A DNA stretch of 13,645 nucleotides from a virus (IMGVR_UViG_2541047884_000005), one strand, 5' to 3'; shown: positions 1 to 13,294, counted from the stretch's first letter. Translations and numbers: made by a program. Notes: generated from the letters alone by a model not told the origin.

Positions 1-92
1 CAGAAAAAGCTTATTATGCTTCCATCGGAAACGATGATCTGGCAGCCTGAGTTCACAGATAAAACACTCTCCAGGAAACCCGGGGCGGTTCA
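1..92 (+). mobile_element. IS629-like right end, partial copy truncated by the window edge
   Basis: Positions 1-92 are identical to 6475-6566, the last 92 bp of the complete IS copy including the terminal ...CCCGGGGCGGTTCA inverted repeat. Confidence 0.85.
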
Positions 93-330
93 CTTTGCCT
101 CCCCAGCCGCCGACCATGCCAGATTGAGAGAGTACGGGAAATGCCTCGATAACGATCTTGATCGCTTCGTTGAGACGTTCAATATCGACATCGGAACCCA
201 TATTAGGTGGGCATCCCTGATAGCAGACTCGACCATTTTGGATGCTAACAAGGCTCTTGAGCATGGCATAATTAATTCCATAAAAACTGCAAGGCTGGCA
301 TCCAATCAGGCAAACTGGTGGGTTGTTTGA
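93..330 (+). pseudogene. Possible 3' remnant of an unknown gene cut by the IS insertion (reading frame continues out of the IS end)
   Basis: Open frame from inside the IS end to a stop at 328-330, converging on the terminator at 352-380. No recognisable family, so it may be non-coding. Confidence 0.2.
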
Positions 331-351
331 TGGGTAAATCATGATTACTCC

Positions 352-380
352 TTATAAAAAACCCACCTGACGGTGGGTTT
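352..380 (-). terminator. Rho-independent terminator of the 1403->379 operon
   Basis: Perfect 7-bp stem ACCCACC (361-367) / GGTGGGT (372-378) with a TGAC loop. On the minus strand it is followed by a T-run (reverse complement of 351-360) and sits directly after the stop at 379-381. Confidence 0.7.
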
Positions 381-828
381 AGTCAAACATAGTGTTTCTA
401 AAGTCTCTCGCATACCCTGCTAACACTCTCATTCTATTATGATTGTTAGCAGACATGTGAGCTACAGGATGAAAAAGAGCAATCAATGAATACCTGTTCT
501 CATCAAAAAGATTTTGTGCATAAACGAGAGCGGTATTGGATGTTTTATGCCACTGCAACTTTTGCGGTGTGCTGATATCTGTGCCATTTTTTATTGGCTC
601 AAATTTATTTTCACCAATTGCTAAATGAAGGTGCATAAGGCCTGCATCTTCAATATCAGGAGGTCGATGATAAGAGGTGTCTCTGCCAAAATAGCTGGGC
701 AACGTTCCCGTAGACTTGTAGATGATAAAATCATCTACAAGTGTTTGTTTTAAATCAGGAAACTCAACAAAAACCGGGGAGAAAAAATAGTCAAAACTAT
801 CCTGATTATATTCCACGGTTACTTGCAT
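379..828 (-). CDS. Hypothetical 149-aa protein, second gene of accessory pair; no family recognised
   Basis: ORF with GAGG Shine-Dalgarno overlapping the upstream gene's stop, 8-bp gap to ATG (826-828), and terminator immediately downstream. Hand-counted 60-nt sample (541-600) had 25 G+C. Confidence 0.7.
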   Translation of the reverse strand: MQVTVEYNQDSFDYFFSPVFVEFPDLKQTLVDDFIIYKSTGTLPSYFGRDTSYHRPPDIEDAGLMHLHLAIGENKFEPIKNGTDISTPQKLQWHKTSNTALVYAQNLFDENRYSLIALFHPVAHMSANNHNRMRVLAGYARDFRNTMFD

Positions 829-836
829 GTTTTACC

Positions 837-1403
837 TCAGTGGAAGTTACCAGAGTGAAACACACGAGTCCCGTGCTCAGCAAGCGCACGCAAACCAGCC
901 ATATCTACGGAACTATCAAAAACAACCGGAACACATGAGCGTTGTTTAATAAGACTATTCAGGTTGGTTACGGCAGATCTGGCATCAGCAACAACGATAT
1001 AGATATCTCTTGCGATCTCTTTAAAATCAGCAGAAGCTTCTTTGAATACCGATTTCATTGCCCCTTCAAGTCCTCTCAATTGATGCTCTATCAATCGAGA
1101 CTTTTCTGGTTCAATGATAGACAACACATTGTCTACATTCTCATCGGTAGCGTTTGCAAGAACACGATAAGCGTATTTCAGCATTCGAGACAATTCTTTA
1201 ATCGAAGACACCGCCTCATGAAGCTCATCATTAGCCCGTTCACTGCTGAATGAGGATTGATGGTAAGCGTGCTGAACGTTATCAGTAACAACCACCTCAC
1301 AACTGAACGCAGAAGCTTGCTGTAATAGCAAACCTATTGCGACTCCAGCTTTGGCAGCGTTCAAGCTAAACATTTCATCAATCCCATTAGTCTCATTGCT
1401 CAT
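837..1403 (-). CDS. Hypothetical 188-aa acidic, mostly helical-looking protein, first gene of accessory pair
   Basis: ATG at 1401-1403 preceded by AAGGAGG (reverse complement of 1409-1415) at 5-nt spacing. The ORF-track start at 1433 is a TTG without an RBS, so the 1403 start is preferred. Confidence 0.7.
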   Translation of the reverse strand: MSNETNGIDEMFSLNAAKAGVAIGLLLQQASAFSCEVVVTDNVQHAYHQSSFSSERANDELHEAVSSIKELSRMLKYAYRVLANATDENVDNVLSIIEPEKSRLIEHQLRGLEGAMKSVFKEASADFKEIARDIYIVVADARSAVTNLNSLIKQRSCVPVVFDSSVDMAGLRALAEHGTRVFHSGNFH

Positions 1404-1578
1404 ACAAACCTCCTTCTTATCGGAGATTATCAATAGCTATGCATCCATTGAATACACGCTATGCGCAATAAGTTTACGTCACGTGATATCATTATGCAAC
1501 CACCGTTCTATCACCGACTAACTTTACTCCCACTCCTATACATCATCTGGTATCCTGCGCAAAACTAAGGAGGTTGGT

Positions 1579-1929
1579 GTGAATGCTCAGTCTGTCATCA
1601 TGGTTTTCCTTGGGCTGATTGTCGCAAAACTATATCCAGACTGGTGGAAAGGGGCATTAGCTACTGTCGCCATCTATTTGCTTTTATCCATCGTTAAGCG
1701 ATCACTCGCTGAGACCGTAAATCAAGCAAAACGTTTCTCATTTAAGAGTTTAATAAACTATGTTACTGGGCTTATTTTTTGCCTTTCAATTCTGATCGCT
1801 TCGGCTTTTTTGCCCGTATCAATAGCTAATTTTTTTGGCGCACCATATGAGGTAGGTTATCTATTCTCTGTTTCCTGTCTTGCCATTGCTCTTCTTTACC
1901 TGTGGACGAGATCAAAGAATAAAAATTAG
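1579..1929 (+). CDS. Small polytopic membrane protein, 116 aa, about four hydrophobic segments
   Basis: GTG start with AAGGAGG (1567-1573) at 5-nt spacing. Hydrophobic stretches such as VIMVFLGLIVAKLY and LIFCLSILIASAFLPVSIANFF. Hand-counted sample 1741-1800 had 18 G+C in 60 nt. Divergent from the 1403->379 operon. Confidence 0.65.
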   Translation: MNAQSVIMVFLGLIVAKLYPDWWKGALATVAIYLLLSIVKRSLAETVNQAKRFSFKSLINYVTGLIFCLSILIASAFLPVSIANFFGAPYEVGYLFSVSCLAIALLYLWTRSKNKN

Positions 1930-1946
1930 CCATCCGTGGCTGCCAG

Positions 1947-3962
1947 TTATTGAGCTTCTTTTTGTGATGCCTGTGCGACTCTGGTGAGCGATTGTGTGAC
2001 CGTACTGATCGCTCTGTCATATGCTGTGCTACCTTTTGGCGTATTTGCCAGACGTAACAAGGCATTTCGTATAACAGGGCTTTCGTATGCCTTCGCAGCT
2101 CCTCCTACGACACCAGCAGCAGGAACAACAAACGCAGCCGTTTTTAGCATCCCCGCTAATACTGCTGCGTTTATGATGCCACCACCAACTAACAATCCAT
2201 AAAGCTGCTGACCATTTAAGTTTTGAACGTTCGCTTTTGCCGCGTGTCTTGTATCGTTGAGGTATTTAATAACGCCGTCCAGTTCCTTTCCATGTACGCC
2301 TTTAAAGAAAGTTGCTGATTGCTTCCTGTTCCGGTGTAACGCATTAATAAACTTTTCAACACTAATATTTCCAGACGGATCAGTCGCCTTATCTACAGCA
2401 TTCTGAACTATGGCTGCTCGTGCGTTTTGCCTACCATTGTCATCCAGAAGCCTGTAAAGCTGAGAACGTTCTGATGGGTTTTGGCTAAAAACGAGTTTTG
2501 TTACATCCTCAGGTGTAGCCTTGCCGCTGGCTATTGCCTTTTGAACGCGCGTTCTTCCCATCATGTCATTGAATCTAGCCCATGAGCGATCAACCCTAGA
2601 CATATTGGCAGCTTCTTCTGAGCCTAGTTTTTGGGATACTGCTTTTTTCATATCCGCTGTATATGCCTTGTAGACAATATCGCTGGCTTTCTGGAGCGTG
2701 TCTTTATCAACAGTCTCGTTTGAATTCATGAACCGCTTTCGAAGGTCAGTTCTGTTTTCTCTCGCCAGACGCAGGTCATTGGGTCCGCTGGTGATATCGT
2801 CTTTAAATTGCTGCAAGACTTTTACCGCGGCTCTATCCTGAGATTTGCCCGGGCGGCTTAACACGGCAATCTGATTGTCGATAGCTTTTACCGTGTTTGA
2901 GAGATCGACAGGGGTATCCCCCATAGCGTCAATTATGCGGTTATATCGCTTTCCTGCTGCCTCAATGAATTTTTGTTGCCCTTTAGTCGCAGATTCATAA
3001 AGCTGTTTATCAGAAATGCCACCCAGACCATCGCTAAATGTTCTGACTAAATTTTCTCGTGCTTGTTGTTGATTCAGCCGATTCTTACCGGTTCCAAAAA
3101 AAGGAACTCTTTCGCCTAATGTCTGAGCCTGACTCTGCATAAAGGTTTTATCTTTCAGCGTGTCACTGGTCATTAACGGCAGGTTTCTTTCCGACGCAAA
3201 ATCGACAGCAGCCTTTGCTTCCGGTGACATCTCACCGCGAACAGCCCTGGAAACCGCACTAACTGTATTTTCCAGCCCCTTGCCAACACCACCAATGCCA
3301 GCAGAAATTACCGTTTGTGCAGGATCAATATCTTCTCCGCCAGCAAGGCTGGTGCCACCCTGTAGTGCTAAATCTGTAGCAGCTGATTTCCCTATGGCAC
3401 CAAGCACCGTTCCAGCCCTGCCCGCTGGTGTGAACGCTAACGCATTAGCAAGAAACGAAGTCAGGTCTTGCGGTGATAAACCTGGCTTGTTCAGGGCATA
3501 ATCACCGGATGGCAGGGAAACGATAGTGTTACCCTTCTCATCCTGCCTTAATTTCGCCCCCATACTCTGAAGAATCTTTTCCTGAGACGCGTCGGAGCCG
3601 AAAAGTTGAGACCATCCAGCCTTCAGGGCATCCATGCTTAGTGAGTTCAACTCAGGGGCAGCCCCAACATTTTGCAGTCTCTCCATTTCTGGTGTCATTC
3701 GGCTTTCACCGGTAACGGCATCGCGCATTGCAGCACCTAAAACAGCCCCTTGCTCAGCAGAGCGATCTAGTCCTTCCTTCTGCTGAGTGGCAAGCTGTGC
3801 ATATCCTGATGCAAGTGAGTTGTCTGCTGGCGATTGCTGAACACCTTGTTGTGTTGGCGCTGACTGACCAGCAAAATACTCATCAATGGCGGACCCAATA
3901 TCTTCCGTGCTCGTACCATCAGGAAAGGTAAATGTCTTACCATTTGCAGTTACTTTCATCAT
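1947..3962 (-). CDS. Virion internal / DNA-ejection protein-like, P22 gp16-class, 671 aa
   Basis: Long Ala/Gly/Gln/Ser-rich ORF whose ATG overlaps the upstream gene's stop (ATGA at 3959-3962), in late-gene orientation. Family assignment is by context and composition, not a verified alignment. Confidence 0.6.
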   Translation of the reverse strand: MMKVTANGKTFTFPDGTSTEDIGSAIDEYFAGQSAPTQQGVQQSPADNSLASGYAQLATQQKEGLDRSAEQGAVLGAAMRDAVTGESRMTPEMERLQNVGAAPELNSLSMDALKAGWSQLFGSDASQEKILQSMGAKLRQDEKGNTIVSLPSGDYALNKPGLSPQDLTSFLANALAFTPAGRAGTVLGAIGKSAATDLALQGGTSLAGGEDIDPAQTVISAGIGGVGKGLENTVSAVSRAVRGEMSPEAKAAVDFASERNLPLMTSDTLKDKTFMQSQAQTLGERVPFFGTGKNRLNQQQARENLVRTFSDGLGGISDKQLYESATKGQQKFIEAAGKRYNRIIDAMGDTPVDLSNTVKAIDNQIAVLSRPGKSQDRAAVKVLQQFKDDITSGPNDLRLARENRTDLRKRFMNSNETVDKDTLQKASDIVYKAYTADMKKAVSQKLGSEEAANMSRVDRSWARFNDMMGRTRVQKAIASGKATPEDVTKLVFSQNPSERSQLYRLLDDNGRQNARAAIVQNAVDKATDPSGNISVEKFINALHRNRKQSATFFKGVHGKELDGVIKYLNDTRHAAKANVQNLNGQQLYGLLVGGGIINAAVLAGMLKTAAFVVPAAGVVGGAAKAYESPVIRNALLRLANTPKGSTAYDRAISTVTQSLTRVAQASQKEAQ

Positions 3963-5256
3963 TCCACCGTAAATTGAATGCCTGATTTTGACGTGTAGCT
4001 ACCTCCTGCTGATTGCTGAGTAGCTGGCTGTTGCCTTGATGATTTCTTCCCGCCATTACCAACATTAACGTTATATTGCTGGTTGTAATTGTCGGTATAT
4101 TGCTGAATGTCGCGCATTGATTGTTGCAGCGCTTCAGGACTTGAGAAATCAGGCTTTGGCATACCCTGAAAATACCTATTGGCCTCTGCTTCGGTGTTGA
4201 TGCCAGATGCCCCCATATCTCGGGCTGCTGCAATCCCCTGATTTTGCATTTTGCCCATGATTCGCTGTGCAGCGTTGTATAGCCTCCTCTCCTCAACACC
4301 AGATGCCCTGCTACGAATATCTGCACCAAGAGCAAAAGAACCTGAAGAACCTGTAATACCTGTCATGAAGCCAAGATCGTCAATTGATGCGCCAGAAATT
4401 GCATCAAGATCTTTCTTCATTTCGTAATTCTGTGCATTAGCTGCCGATGTAGCCGGAGCAGCAATAGAACTGGCGGGGACGCGAATCATATTGCCCTCGT
4501 TGTCTATTCCTTCGTAGAACGCATTAGCACCAGCGCCGTGAAGCTTCCTACCAACCGTTACCGTTCTGCCATCTGCCAGTTGCACAACATTCTCCCCGCC
4601 AGCATCAGGACGACCTCGAACACGAAGATATGTCTTTTGTTGCTCTGGAGACAGGCTGTTGAAATATTGATATTCTTTAACAGATGCAGGAACAGCACCT
4701 CCAGCAGTGCGCAGGGAGTTTTCACGGCTAACAGCAATGCTTTGCGCCTTTAAACCTTCCCCAGCTTTATTGCTGCGAATCGTCTCTGCCAACTTGCCAC
4801 GCTCAATATCCCGACCTTCCATTTGATCTTTGATATCGAAATACTTCTCATGACCGAGAGAAAATAGTGCCAGATTACCTGCGAAGTGCTGGAAGCCCTG
4901 CGGGTCATTAACCTGCATTTCCGCAATAGTTTCTGGAGGGATACCTAAACGACGCATCTCCTTTTCGTTATCCATCATGAACCTGCCAAATGCACCCGGA
5001 CCAAGCGACGAAGCGACCTGAGCCTTAAGCGCCAGATTGCCAAAATCATCCCGCTGGGCGTCATCGACATACCCCATGCCTTTACGGACTTCCTCAAACT
5101 CTTCGGGGAATGCTGTAATAAGATTACGCATCTGCTCCCTGTCGCCGGACGCATAAGCATCCGCATAACCTTTCTGGAATGCCGCTTTACGCTCCTGCTT
5201 TTGCTGCTGCTTATAAATATCAGCAACTCCAGCCAGACCACGAAGACCTGTCAGAG
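3959..5256 (-). pseudogene. 5'-truncated ejection-protein-like gene (P22 gp20-class), decapitated by IS629
   Basis: Frame is open without a stop from the ORF-track Met (5131) all the way up to the IS boundary at 5256, so the original start and promoter are gone. Gly/Ala/Gln-rich; coupled to the downstream gene. Confidence 0.6.
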
Positions 5257-5310
5257 TGAACCGCCCCGGGAATCCTGGAGACTAAACTTCCTGAGAAAGA
5301 GGTAAACAGG

Positions 5311-5637
5311 ATGACTAAAAATACTCGTTTTTCCCCCGAAGTCCGTCAACGGGCAGTCCGTATGGTTCTGGAAAGTCAGAGCGAATATGACTCACAATGG
5401 GCGACAATTTGTTCCATTGCTCCAAAGATTGGCTGTACGCCGGAGACTCTGCGTGTCTGGGTTCGCCAGCATGAGCGGGATACCGGGGGCGGTGATGGAG
5501 GGCTCACCACCGCTGAACGTCAGCGTCTGAAAGAGCTGGAACGTGAAAATCGTGAACTGCGCCGCAGTAACGATATCCTTCGCCAGGCTTCCGCTTATTT
5601 TGCGAAGGCGGAGTTCGACCGCCTCTGGAAAAAATGA
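5311..5637 (+). CDS. IS629 transposase OrfA (HTH / leucine-zipper part)
   Basis: 108-aa [23 protein letters not shown]... matches my memory of IS629/IS1203 OrfA. Ends at TGG AAA AAA TGA, the A6 run (5629-5634) typical of IS3-family -1 frameshift windows. Confidence 0.9.
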
Positions 5638-6524
5638 TGCCACTGCTGGATAAGCTGCGTGAGCAGTACGGGGTCGGACCGCTATGCAGCGAACTGCATA
5701 TTGCCCCGTCAACGTATTACCACTGTCAGCAACAGCGACATCATCCGGATAAACGCAGTGCCCGTGCGCAGCGCGATGACTGGCTGAAGAAAGAGATACA
5801 GCGCGTATACGATGAAAATCACAAGGTATACGGTGTGCGTAAAGTCTGGCGTCAGTTGTTACGGGAAGGTATCAGAGTGGCCAGATGCACTGTGGCACGT
5901 CTCATGGCGGTTATGGGACTTGCCGGTGTTCTCCGGGGTAAAAAGGTCCGTACGACCATCAGCCGGAAAGCCGTTGCCGCAGGCGACCGCGTAAACCGTC
6001 AGTTCGTGGCAGAACGACCTGACCAGCTGTGGGTGGCTGATTTTACTTACGTCAGCACATGGCGGGGCTTCGTCTATGTGGCGTTCATCATTGATGTGTT
6101 TGCCGGATACATCGTGGGGTGGCGGGTCTCATCGTCCATGGAAACGACATTCGTGCTGGATGCACTGGAGCAGGCGTTATGGGCCCGTCGACCGTCCGGC
6201 ACGGTCCATCACAGTGATAAAGGTTCTCAGTATGTATCGCTGGCCTACACACAGCGGCTTAAGGAAGCCGGATTACTGGCATCAACAGGAAGTACAGGCG
6301 ACTCGTATGACAACGCGATGGCGGAGAGCATCAATGGTCTTTACAAAGCGGAGGTAATACACCGTAAGAGCTGGAAAAACCGTGCAGAAGTGGAACTGGC
6401 CACACTCACGTGGGTGGACTGGTATAACAATCGACGATTGCTGGAAAGGCTGGGCCATACTCCTCCGGCAGAAGCAGAAAAAGCTTATTATGCTTCCATC
6501 GGAAACGATGATCTGGCAGCCTGA
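5634..6524 (+). CDS. IS629 transposase OrfB (DDE/rve catalytic domain), expressed as OrfAB fusion by -1 frameshift
   Basis: -1 frame relative to orfA, overlapping at the A6 run. Contains DDE-type motifs ([30 protein letters not shown]). Confidence 0.9.
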
Positions 6525-6566
6525 GTTCACAGATAAAACACTCTCCAGGAAACCCGGGGCGGTTCA

Positions 6567-6600
6567 CGGCGGGAATGAGGACCATGACTGTTAAAGAGCA
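6567..6600 (-). promoter_or_regulatory. nutR remnant: intact boxA plus the 5' half of boxB, cut by the IS629 junction
   Basis: On the minus strand: TGCTCTTTAACA (reverse complement of 6589-6600), a 14-nt spacer, then TCCCGCCG (reverse complement of 6567-6574), identical to the first 8 nt of the nutL boxB hairpin at 7714-7731. The next base is the IS terminus. Confidence 0.5.
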
Positions 6601-6606
6601 ATTTGC

Positions 6607-6792
6607 TTATGCCGCTTTGCGGTAAGCGCTTTCTTGATACTTCAGGGCGCCAGCTGTAACGACTTCCAGTCGATAGGCGTCTTTCTCTGGGATGACTTCC
6701 TTCCACTGAGAGACTGCTGCGTCGCTAATGCCTAACGCTTTAGCTACAGCACGCTGGGTTCCGAAGTGGTCGATAACATCTTTCTTGTACAT
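6607..6792 (-). CDS. cro: Cro repressor, P22-type
   Basis: 61-aa MYKKDVIDHFGTQRAVAKALGISDAAVSQWKE... with HTH; matches remembered P22 Cro. GGAG RBS upstream; divergent from the repressor gene across the operator region. Confidence 0.9.
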   Translation of the reverse strand: MYKKDVIDHFGTQRAVAKALGISDAAVSQWKEVIPEKDAYRLEVVTAGALKYQESAYRKAA

Positions 6793-6872
6793 AGACTCGC
6801 TCCGAAATTAAAGAACACTTAAATTATCCACTAAAGGAATCTTAAGTCAAGTTTATTTAAGATGTCTTAACT
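6793..6872. promoter_or_regulatory. OR operator region with PR/PRM; three 18-bp operators
   Basis: Three matches to the P22-type operator pattern ANTNAAG-N4-CTTNANT at 6807-6824, 6830-6847 and 6855-6872. The last abuts the c2 ATG with no RBS, consistent with a leaderless PRM transcript. Confidence 0.65.
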
Positions 6873-7523
6873 ATGAAAACTCAATTGATGGGAGAGCGCA
6901 TTCGCGCTCGGAGAAAAGAACTCAAGATCAGGCAGGCCGCACTTGGAAAGATGGTCGGCGTGTCTAATGTTGCCATATCTCAGTGGGAACGCTCTGAGAC
7001 AGAGCCAAATGGAGAGAATCTTCTCGCCCTGGCTAATGCGTTGAAGTGTTCCCCTGACTATCTGATGAAAGGAGAGGAAAGTCTTTCAAACATTGCCTAT
7101 CACAGTAGGCATGATCCAAGAGGGTCATACCCTCTGATTAGCTGGGTGAGCGCAGGATGCTGGATGGAAGCTGTAGAACCATATCATAAGCGTGCAATAG
7201 ATAACTGGTACGATACAACCGTAGACTGTTCAGAAGATTCGTTTTGGTTGGACGTGAAGGGAGACTCAATGACGGCTCCGGCCGGTCTCAGTATCCCTGA
7301 AGGAATGATAATACTCGTCGATCCTGAAGTAGAGCCGCGTAACGGGAAACTGGTAGTTGCAAAGCTCGAAGGAGAAAACGAGGCAACTTTCAAGAAGTTA
7401 GTTATTGATGCAGGCAGGAAGTTTCTAAAACCACTTAACCCACAATATCCGATGATCGAGATCAACGGAAACTGCAAAATCATCGGCGTAGTTGTCGATG
7501 CAAAACTAGCAAACCTTCCATAA
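6873..7523 (+). CDS. c2: Prophage repressor C2 (CI-type: HTH plus S24 LexA-like autopeptidase domain)
   Basis: 216 aa, near-identical to my memory of P22 C2 (MxTQLMGERIRARRK...GVVVDAKLANLP). Ala-Gly cleavage site (VSAGCWM) and GDSM serine motif present. Confidence 0.93.
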   Translation: MKTQLMGERIRARRKELKIRQAALGKMVGVSNVAISQWERSETEPNGENLLALANALKCSPDYLMKGEESLSNIAYHSRHDPRGSYPLISWVSAGCWMEAVEPYHKRAIDNWYDTTVDCSEDSFWLDVKGDSMTAPAGLSIPEGMIILVDPEVEPRNGKLVVAKLEGENEATFKKLVIDAGRKFLKPLNPQYPMIEINGNCKIIGVVVDAKLANLP

Positions 7524-7689: not shown

Positions 7690-7731
7690 GGCTCTTTAAC
7701 ATTGATGGGATTGTCCCGCCGAAATGCGGGA
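7690..7731 (+). promoter_or_regulatory. nutL: boxA GGCTCTTTAACA plus boxB hairpin
   Basis: BoxA-consensus match at 7690-7701. After a 12-nt spacer, stem CCCGC (7715-7719) / GCGGG (7726-7730) with a CGAAAT loop. About 40-80 nt downstream of the predicted PL start, and the same boxA/boxB sequence recurs after cro. Confidence 0.55.
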
Positions 7732-8044
7732 ACCAAAGAGTAGTTGGCTTTGGGGTGACGTGAAGTGCAGCTGCACGACGGCAACCGGAAGATAAGCACC
7801 CGGCGCGTCACCGCCAAAGTCAATTCCATAGGCGTTATGCAGCCGCCACCATATTCAAGAAAGCTGCACAAGAGGTAGGAGGATTTATGTGAATGCATAA
7901 CTTCAAAACCGAGGTTAATTAAATCTCTCGATCCGAGCATCGACCTATTAGGTGGCGAGATGCTCTTTCTGCCCCTCAGTTCGAGGGGCCAGAAACCACT
8001 TTGCAATCACTATCAATTCCAAAGTTGTTTCATCGGAGGTCAAC

Positions 8045-8343
8045 ATGACAGTAGTCATTACATATCTGGCTGACGATAACGCCAGAAATCGCCGCAGAGC
8101 ACGCAGACAGGCTCAACGTGAACAGGCGATGCAAGACAGCGACTGGCGCGAAAAATTGCGCTAAAGCTCTCTGGTTGCGTCAGAGCGGATAAAGCAGCAT
8201 CACTCGGAATCCTTCGCTGCAAGAAGGCAGATGAAGTCGAGAGTAAACAGAATCGTATTTACTACCGCAAGCCACGCAGTGAAATGGGTGTGACTTGTGT
8301 TGGTCGCCAGAAAATGAAATTAGGCAGCAAACCACTTATTTGA
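8045..8343 (+). pseudogene. N: Antitermination protein N, interrupted by a 1-nt frameshift at an A5 run (8151-8155)
   Basis: Frame 2 from ATG 8045 (GGAGG RBS) gives MTVVITYLADDNARNRRRARRQAQREQ... (Arg-rich motif) and stops at 8162-8164. Frame 1 is open from 8122 to the TGA at 8341-8343 and ends ...RKPRSEMGVTCVGRQKMKLGSKPLI, resembling the lambda N C-terminus ...SKPGERGITCSGRQKIKGKSIPLI. Confidence 0.6.
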
Positions 8344-13093: not shown

Positions 13094-13294
13094 ATGCAAC
13101 ACGAACTACAACCTGATTCACTGGTTGATTTGAAATTCATCATGGCCGATACTGGCTTCGGTAAAACCTTCATCTATGACCGGATTAAGTCCGGCGACCT
13201 GCCAAAAGCCAAAGTTATCCACGGGCGAGCAAGATGGTTATATCGTGACCATTGTGAATTCAAAAATAAGCTCTTAAGCCGCGCCAATGGGTAA
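13094..13294 (+). CDS. AlpA/Xis-family small DNA-binding protein (excisionase-like)
   Basis: 66 aa. ...LVDLKFIMADTGFGKTFIYDRIKSGDLPKAKVIHGRARWLYRD... follows the AlpA/excisionase HTH pattern, in the position of xis at the end of the PL operon. Confidence 0.65.
   Translation: MQHELQPDSLVDLKFIMADTGFGKTFIYDRIKSGDLPKAKVIHGRARWLYRDHCEFKNKLLSRANG

Follow-up and report, generated by a model that had tools for sequence, protein, structure and literature searches.

Features of the locus

The window is the whole stretch of DNA that was analysed, 13,645 nucleotides from a virus (IMGVR_UViG_2541047884_000005), with positions counted from its first letter. It begins in an end of the insertion sequence IS629 and carries accessory genes, two genes for P22-like ejection proteins, a complete IS629 and a phage immunity region. 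The following features were assigned:

1–92, plus strand: right (IRR) end of IS629, truncated where the contig ends, identical to 6475–6566
93–330, plus strand: 3' fragment of a ClpP-like protease gene, last 79 codons (PF00574 on the full-length protein of strain S88)
16–330, plus strand: in-frame hybrid open reading frame that starts inside the IS end
379–828, minus strand: YafO-family toxin gene, 149 aa, accessory cassette (PF13957, 3.4e-22)
837–1403, minus strand: gene of a hypothetical 188-aa protein, upstream of yafO (phrog_8416)
1600–1929, plus strand: gene of a hypothetical 109-aa protein, no family match
1947–3959, minus strand: P22 gp16-like DNA ejection protein gene, intact, 670 aa (PF26808; phrog_770, 1.3e-172)
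3959–5256, minus strand: P22 gp20-like ejection protein gene, first 154 nt missing (PF16928 from profile position 83)
5257–6566, plus strand: complete IS629, 1,310 bp
6567–6606, minus strand: nutR remnant with boxA GCTCTTTAACA (6589–6599) and a boxB hairpin reduced to its 5' half
6607–6792, minus strand: cro gene, 61 aa (PF14549, P22_Cro)
6823–6850, minus strand: PR-like promoter (TTGACT, 16-nt spacer, GATAAT; promoter scan)
6873–7523, plus strand: cI/C2-type repressor gene, 216 aa, with HTH and S24 peptidase domains
7691–7732, plus strand: nutL with boxA and intact boxB (GTCCCGC-CGAAAT-GCGGGAA)
8045–8164, plus strand: N-like antiterminator gene with a frameshift, 39 aa in place of 99 aa

No record was found when the hybrid reading frame (16–330) was looked up. 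A ZorA-like reading of the accessory proteins (PADLOC) was marginal (E = 0.004) and was judged not meaningful. The truncated gp20-like gene, termed gp20' below, has a longest remaining reading frame of 390 aa (start at 5131). That this gene has lost its start had been stated in an earlier note on this DNA and was borne out by the comparison with S88.

Source contig and scaffold

The window is a single contig of a gapped short-read assembly. An exact look-up of the 390-aa reading frame of gp20' led to its source: it is 100% identical to scaffold KE701659.1 of draft assembly GCA_000460295.1, in which 1,865 N lie directly to its left and 3,585 N directly to its right. The intact prophage of strain S88 served as reference for all comparisons. 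At the place of the right N-run S88 has 3,218 nt (difference ~11%), and the N-runs were therefore taken as size estimates, not as placeholders.

Along the scaffold, yfdC - argW - intS - neuO' - (gap) - IS end - ClpP' - yafO are followed by two hypothetical genes - gp16 - gp20' - IS629 - cro - cI - nutL - N' - erf and, beyond erf, by torI - dsdC' - (gap) - 'dsdA - emrYK - evgAS. The contig to the left of the left gap terminates in the GAGTCTT heptanucleotide repeat of neuO.

The 92-nt IS629 end at the window start is a contig edge inside a repeat, at which the assembler stopped. A k-mer assembly of run SRR786007 yielded a contig of 5,219 nt that corresponds exactly to window 66–5284 and ends at both IS edges. 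It independently confirms, at read level, the junction between the IS end and ClpP' (J1, 92/93) and that between gp20' and the complete IS (J2, 5256/5257). The earlier note had described two directly oriented IS629 copies: the 92-bp identity, the orientation and the complete copy at 5257–6566 stood, whereas the left copy turned out to be visible only up to a contig edge. Extension to the left, proposed there as a check, ended at this edge and the 1,865 N. A practical lesson is that where a window opens with a piece of an IS, this piece may reflect nothing more than the point at which a short-read contig ends.

Identity of the prophage

The right part of the window, comprising the immunity and early-left regions, is 98.9% identical to phage CUS-3. 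Positions 93–5256 are 100% identical to the uninterrupted prophages of S88, APEC O1 and ATCC 11775; among the matches listed, every uninterrupted copy of this segment showed 100% identity and lay inside a CUS-3 prophage. The scaffold is collinear with the intact S88 prophage, and the integration site is the same: argW and dsdC border the prophage, which carries intS and neuO on the one side and torI on the opposite side. The full P22-like set of structural, lysis and replication genes is not present, as 20,725 bp are replaced by an IS, which makes the locus a defective remnant.

The same integration site (argW-intS ... torI-dsdC), a neuO gene with heptanucleotide repeat and P22-like gp16 and gp20 genes are found in CUS-3 of E. 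coli K1 RS218, the prophage to which the work of King (2007) reportedly refers. Its decayed derivatives occupy this site, too. CUS-3-like phages between argW and dsdC have been described as decaying readily: structural and replication genes are lost, and the distance between neuO and dsdC shrinks (PMC9659370). That intS, neuO, the immunity region and torI have been retained at the present locus fits the published idea that selection keeps neuO.

Altogether, we regard it as highly probable that the locus is what remains of a CUS-3-like (P22-like) prophage at argW-dsdC of an E. coli K1-type chromosome, and that IS629 is eroding this prophage. This estimate is for the explanation as a whole, which includes the IS629-marked deletion of 20.7 kb and the second IS629 end at the contig edge, both described below.

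The IS629 element

The complete element (1,310 nt) is 99.5% identical at nucleotide level to the entry "insertion sequence: IS3 family IS629" in LC567824.1 (Stx-phage records); the criterion for the name was a nucleotide identity of 95% or more with a named IS629. Its terminal inverted repeats span 26 nt and are 92% complementary (5256–5281 / 6542–6567). orfA (5311–5637) and orfB (5634–6524) overlap and match the IS3-family transposase model NF033516 (1e-93), rve domains were found in the transposase, and an ALIL frameshift pseudoknot lies at 5592–5708 (120 bits). Length and inverted repeats, the orfA/orfB pair with -1 frameshift and DDE (rve) transposase, and sequence identity are thus all those of IS629, and the element's name, orientation and coordinates given in the earlier note were correct. 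A repeat search aligned window 1–93 with 6475–6567 at 100% identity in direct orientation; the last base of this match (C, 93/6567) lies outside the IS and agrees by chance. One weak terminator-like hairpin was seen in IRR in a scan of 3900–7000 and was not relied on.

IS629 of E. coli O157 Stx prophages has the same length, orfA/orfB with ALIL pseudoknot, rve-type transposase and terminal inverted repeats, and likewise sits in prophage DNA. The present copy differs in its host, which is of K1/ExPEC-type background, and in its flanks. IS629 usually generates a target duplication of 3–4 bp (PMC3271280), and a simple insertion in strain E10 is flanked by GGT/GGT, whereas the copy at 5257–6566 is flanked by GAG and CGG. 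The search for target duplications suggested in the earlier note was hence negative for the complete copy. The missing duplication points to a rearranged copy, i.e. a recombinant or deletion junction, and not to a different IS.

Junctions and the 20.7-kb deletion

All three junctions were placed on S88. At J1, window position 93 equals position 20001 of S88 locus L005, 299 nt into a ClpP-like CDS of 537 nt. At J2, position 5256 equals S88 2505952, 154 nt into the gp20-like gene of 1,452 nt. At J3, the right edge of the complete IS, position 6567 equals S88 2526678, 40 nt past the stop codon of cro. The complete IS629 stands in place of 20,725 bp of the S88 prophage, a block that holds the 5' end of gp20, gp7, the head, portal, terminase and lysis genes, Q, nin and the replication genes up to cII. 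Since 20,725 bp are replaced and no target duplication is seen, the complete IS629 is read from the sequence as the scar of a 20.7-kb deletion or recombination, and not as a simple insertion. More generally, an IS that lacks its target duplication is better read as such a scar than as a fresh insertion.

The simplest and most likely history, in which the order of events is our inference, is an insertion of two copies followed by recombination. One IS629 copy would have entered gp20 and another, in direct orientation to it, the nutR boxB loop just past cro. Homologous recombination between them would then have removed 20.7 kb and left a single IS without target duplication.

It is less likely, though still worth considering, that a single IS629 deleted the adjacent DNA in one step, through either intramolecular transposition or an IEE-type deletion that accompanies excision. 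The missing target duplication fits this route and the two-insertion route alike. However, copy-out/paste-in transposition of IS3-family elements is not known to delete neighbouring DNA by itself, and related strains have many separate insertions of IS629 in this prophage, which offer possible substrates for recombination. The one-step route is in line with reports of IS629-mediated deletions as a source of O157 diversity (PMC3271280).

The link J2-IS-J3 is the assembler's join through a multicopy repeat of 1.3 kb in a short-read draft. An assembly artefact was accordingly considered, in which J1, J2 and J3 are real and the wrong partners were joined through the repeat, for instance in the case of three simple insertions or an inversion. 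The source is a gapped short-read scaffold, IS629 occurs in 6–27 places in related strains, and the k-mer contig halts at both IS edges, all of which would be compatible with a wrong join. Against this, the scaffold has neuO on one side of the 13.6-kb contig and dsdC on the other, and its gaps, 1.9 and 3.6 kb in size, are too small to hold 20 kb; the right gap estimate is within ~11% of S88; the arrangement is collinear with S88; and comparable IS629-mediated deletions exist in the finished genomes of E12053 and AH19K002. We therefore hold a wrong join to be improbable and retain the deletion of 20.7 kb.

J1, J2 and J3 were each searched singly in 5,426 complete E. coli genomes, with 0 matches. 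Two rows of "100%" obtained for J1 in complete genomes were matches in two parts, between which lay an additional 270 nt of ClpP sequence. The exact patterns of J1 and J3 were absent from viral contigs, and that of J3 from species-representative genomes and metagenome contigs. The three exact junctions are thus private to this strain, in which it differs from the known decayed CUS-3 derivatives.

Left IS end and left gap

The 92-nt IS end at the window start is best explained as part of a further IS629 copy, by which the ClpP-like gene is interrupted. This left copy would have been impassable for the short-read assembler, and the contig would have stopped there. A simple IS insertion in an otherwise intact prophage needs 5,377 + 1,218 = ~6.6 kb between the contigs, whereas the left gap is 1,865 N. 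After subtraction of the 1,218 nt of the unseen part of the IS, ~650 nt are left, which would accommodate the missing part of neuO plus, from the tailspike 3' end, no more than a few hundred bases. Because the gap is far shorter than ~6.6 kb, a second deletion at an IS, ~4.7 kb long and spanning tailspike, ant, arc, mnt and 5' ClpP, has probably occurred, as judged from the length of the N-run.

IS629 in the same prophage of other strains

Independent IS629 copies were found at other positions of the same prophage in further K1 strains and sequences, namely BEN5202, APEC E12053, AH19K002, E10, GCA_903975005.1 and one metagenome contig. The target duplication is missing in eight of the nine complete IS629 copies in this prophage, the window's own included. 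Scars that closely resemble the one proposed for the left gap are present in finished genomes. The finished genome of APEC E12053 reads tailspike' - IS629 - ClpP, that of AH19K002 reads tailspike' - IS629 - ant', and that of BEN5202 has two IS629 copies, in and beside the tailspike gene. This pattern is one of repeated, lineage-private erosion of the prophage by IS629, and not that of a mobile unit.

Insertions of IS629, and deletions mediated by it, are known to diversify the genomes of E. coli, O157 included (PMC3271280). The feature seen here is already known in kind, and only the exact junctions J1, J2 and J3 are new. The present locus is one more case of IS629-driven prophage erosion, of CUS-3 in particular, and carries little weight beyond annotation.

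The earlier note had proposed that the IS pair could act as a composite element carrying the cassette. As a functional composite transposon, or as a translocatable unit excised as a circle, the pair with the 5.2-kb segment would move the cassette of YafO toxin, ClpP' and gp16 between replicons. The IS ends are identical and in direct orientation, and any direct repeat pair of 1.3 kb can recombine and release a circle; homologous recombination between two direct copies is possible in principle, as for any IS pair. In composite transposons of the Tn10 or Tn5 type, two IS ends likewise flank a few kb. Here, by contrast, the second IS copy is seen as a 92-nt end only, the outer left flank of the segment falls in the N-gap and the outer right flank is CGG, with no outer target duplication visible, and the cargo consists of truncated phage genes. 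Instead of occurring as the same unit in different genomic contexts, the segment was found at no other locus: among the matches listed, 93–5256 always lay within CUS-3-like prophages, and it was on 0 of 72,556 plasmids. Elements of the IS3 family normally transpose through circles of a single IS (copy-out, paste-in) and rarely form composite transposons. With the complete copy being a deletion scar that lacks a target duplication, and with J1, J2 and J3 in 0 of 5,426 complete genomes, J1 and J3 in no viral contig and J3 missing from the species-representative genome and metagenome collections, a composite or translocatable unit is hardly credible. The bracketing of the segment by IS629 is read as a by-product of prophage decay.

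Expression of gp20' and gp16

PR (6850–6823) and cro (6792–6607) lie on the minus strand and point antisense into the IS toward gp20' and gp16, in agreement with the earlier note, which had further proposed that gp16 can be transcribed only by readthrough from PR/cro or from a promoter inside the IS. Downstream of cro, S88 has a boxA (GCTCTTTAACA) and a hairpin of 8 bp, AUUCCCGC-CGAAAU-GCGGGAAU. The same boxA and hairpin core are present upstream of the N-like gene (nutL, 7691–7732), by which the hairpin after cro was identified as the boxB of nutR. J3 lies inside the loop of this hairpin, and nutR is consequently destroyed.

The S88 N-like protein has an arginine-rich N-terminus and a weak match to PF25694 (N_peptide). 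In the window, the N-like gene carries a 1-nt deletion near 8136 and stops after 39 of 99 codons; the change is a single missing A and may be a sequencing error. Q and the late promoter fall in the deleted block. In the promoter scan of 3900–7000 on the minus strand PR was the only hit, and within the IS no promoter-like site pointed toward gp20', which speaks against an internal IS promoter for gp16. Readthrough from PR/cro is weakened as an explanation by the split boxB, the frameshifted N and the loss of Q and the late promoter. With their own late promoter and Q lost, nutR split and N frameshifted, the ejection genes gp20' and gp16 are probably silent relics, as far as can be predicted from the DNA.

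Possible excision functions and ends of the remnant

Putative excision genes are kept, one at each end of the prophage remnant:

L006 (left flanking locus on the source scaffold) 17896-19053: intS, prophage left end
window 13094-13294: torI, excisionase-like, prophage right end

Since both torI and intS are kept, the whole remnant might still be able to excise as one unit. The KplE1/CPS-53 remnant of K-12 excises as a whole.

The window contig is bounded by scaffold gaps on both sides (window 1 and 13645), facing L006 and the right flanking locus L011. The neighbouring contig on the left ends at the neuO heptanucleotide repeat. On the right, the window reaches past attR into flanking chromosome and stops within the 3' end of dsdC; the gap there spans dsdC-dsdX-dsdA. 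Two copies of the dsdC-dsdX-dsdA locus are reported for K1 strains.

Regulatory region and reading frames

The following nut sites were located in the window, and the S88 locus L017 was compared at 2640-2720:

window 6567-6599 (nutR) and 7691-7732 (nutL): boxA (GCTCTTTAACA) plus boxB hairpin with loop CGAAAT

nutL is intact, and the boxB loop of nutR is interrupted by the IS629 junction, which falls within the loop. The N-like antiterminator gene (window 8045-8164) carries a 1-nt deletion relative to S88 near 8136, leaving 39 codons before the stop versus 99 in S88. The arginine-rich N-terminus is still present in the shortened protein. The gene may be a real pseudogene, or the missing base may be an error in the sequencing. 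Two further single-base indels relative to S88, at window 11276 and 12382, restore the YfdS-family and DUF4752 ORFs, whose S88 copies are annotated as frameshifted pseudogenes. Judged by these reading frames, the window copy of both genes is the intact one, not the S88 copy.

Hybrid ORF and accessory cassette

Further coding features were found at the left end of the window:

window 16-330, + strand: hybrid ORF of 104 aa, with its ATG in the IS629 right end and in frame with the ClpP-like gene
window 379-1929: accessory cassette between gp16 and mnt, encoding a 149-aa YafO-family toxin, a hypothetical 188-aa protein (phrog_8416; its gene precedes the toxin gene) and a 109-aa orphan

The 3' part of the hybrid ORF comprises the ClpP-like gene's final 79 codons. 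Analogous IS-ClpP fusions are called by NCBI's annotation pipeline in E12053 and E10. Within the cassette, no YafN-type antitoxin was recognisable beside the toxin gene, and PADLOC gave no match except one marginal ZorA-like hit.

IS629 insertions in related prophages

CUS-3-like prophages with IS629 at other positions were found in six other sources (L001, L002, L003, L004, L007 and L010). Among these, the tailspike gene was the site of at least three insertions and gp16/gp20 of several; target duplications were absent from most. In BEN5202, a tailspike fragment appears to be inverted between two inverted IS copies.
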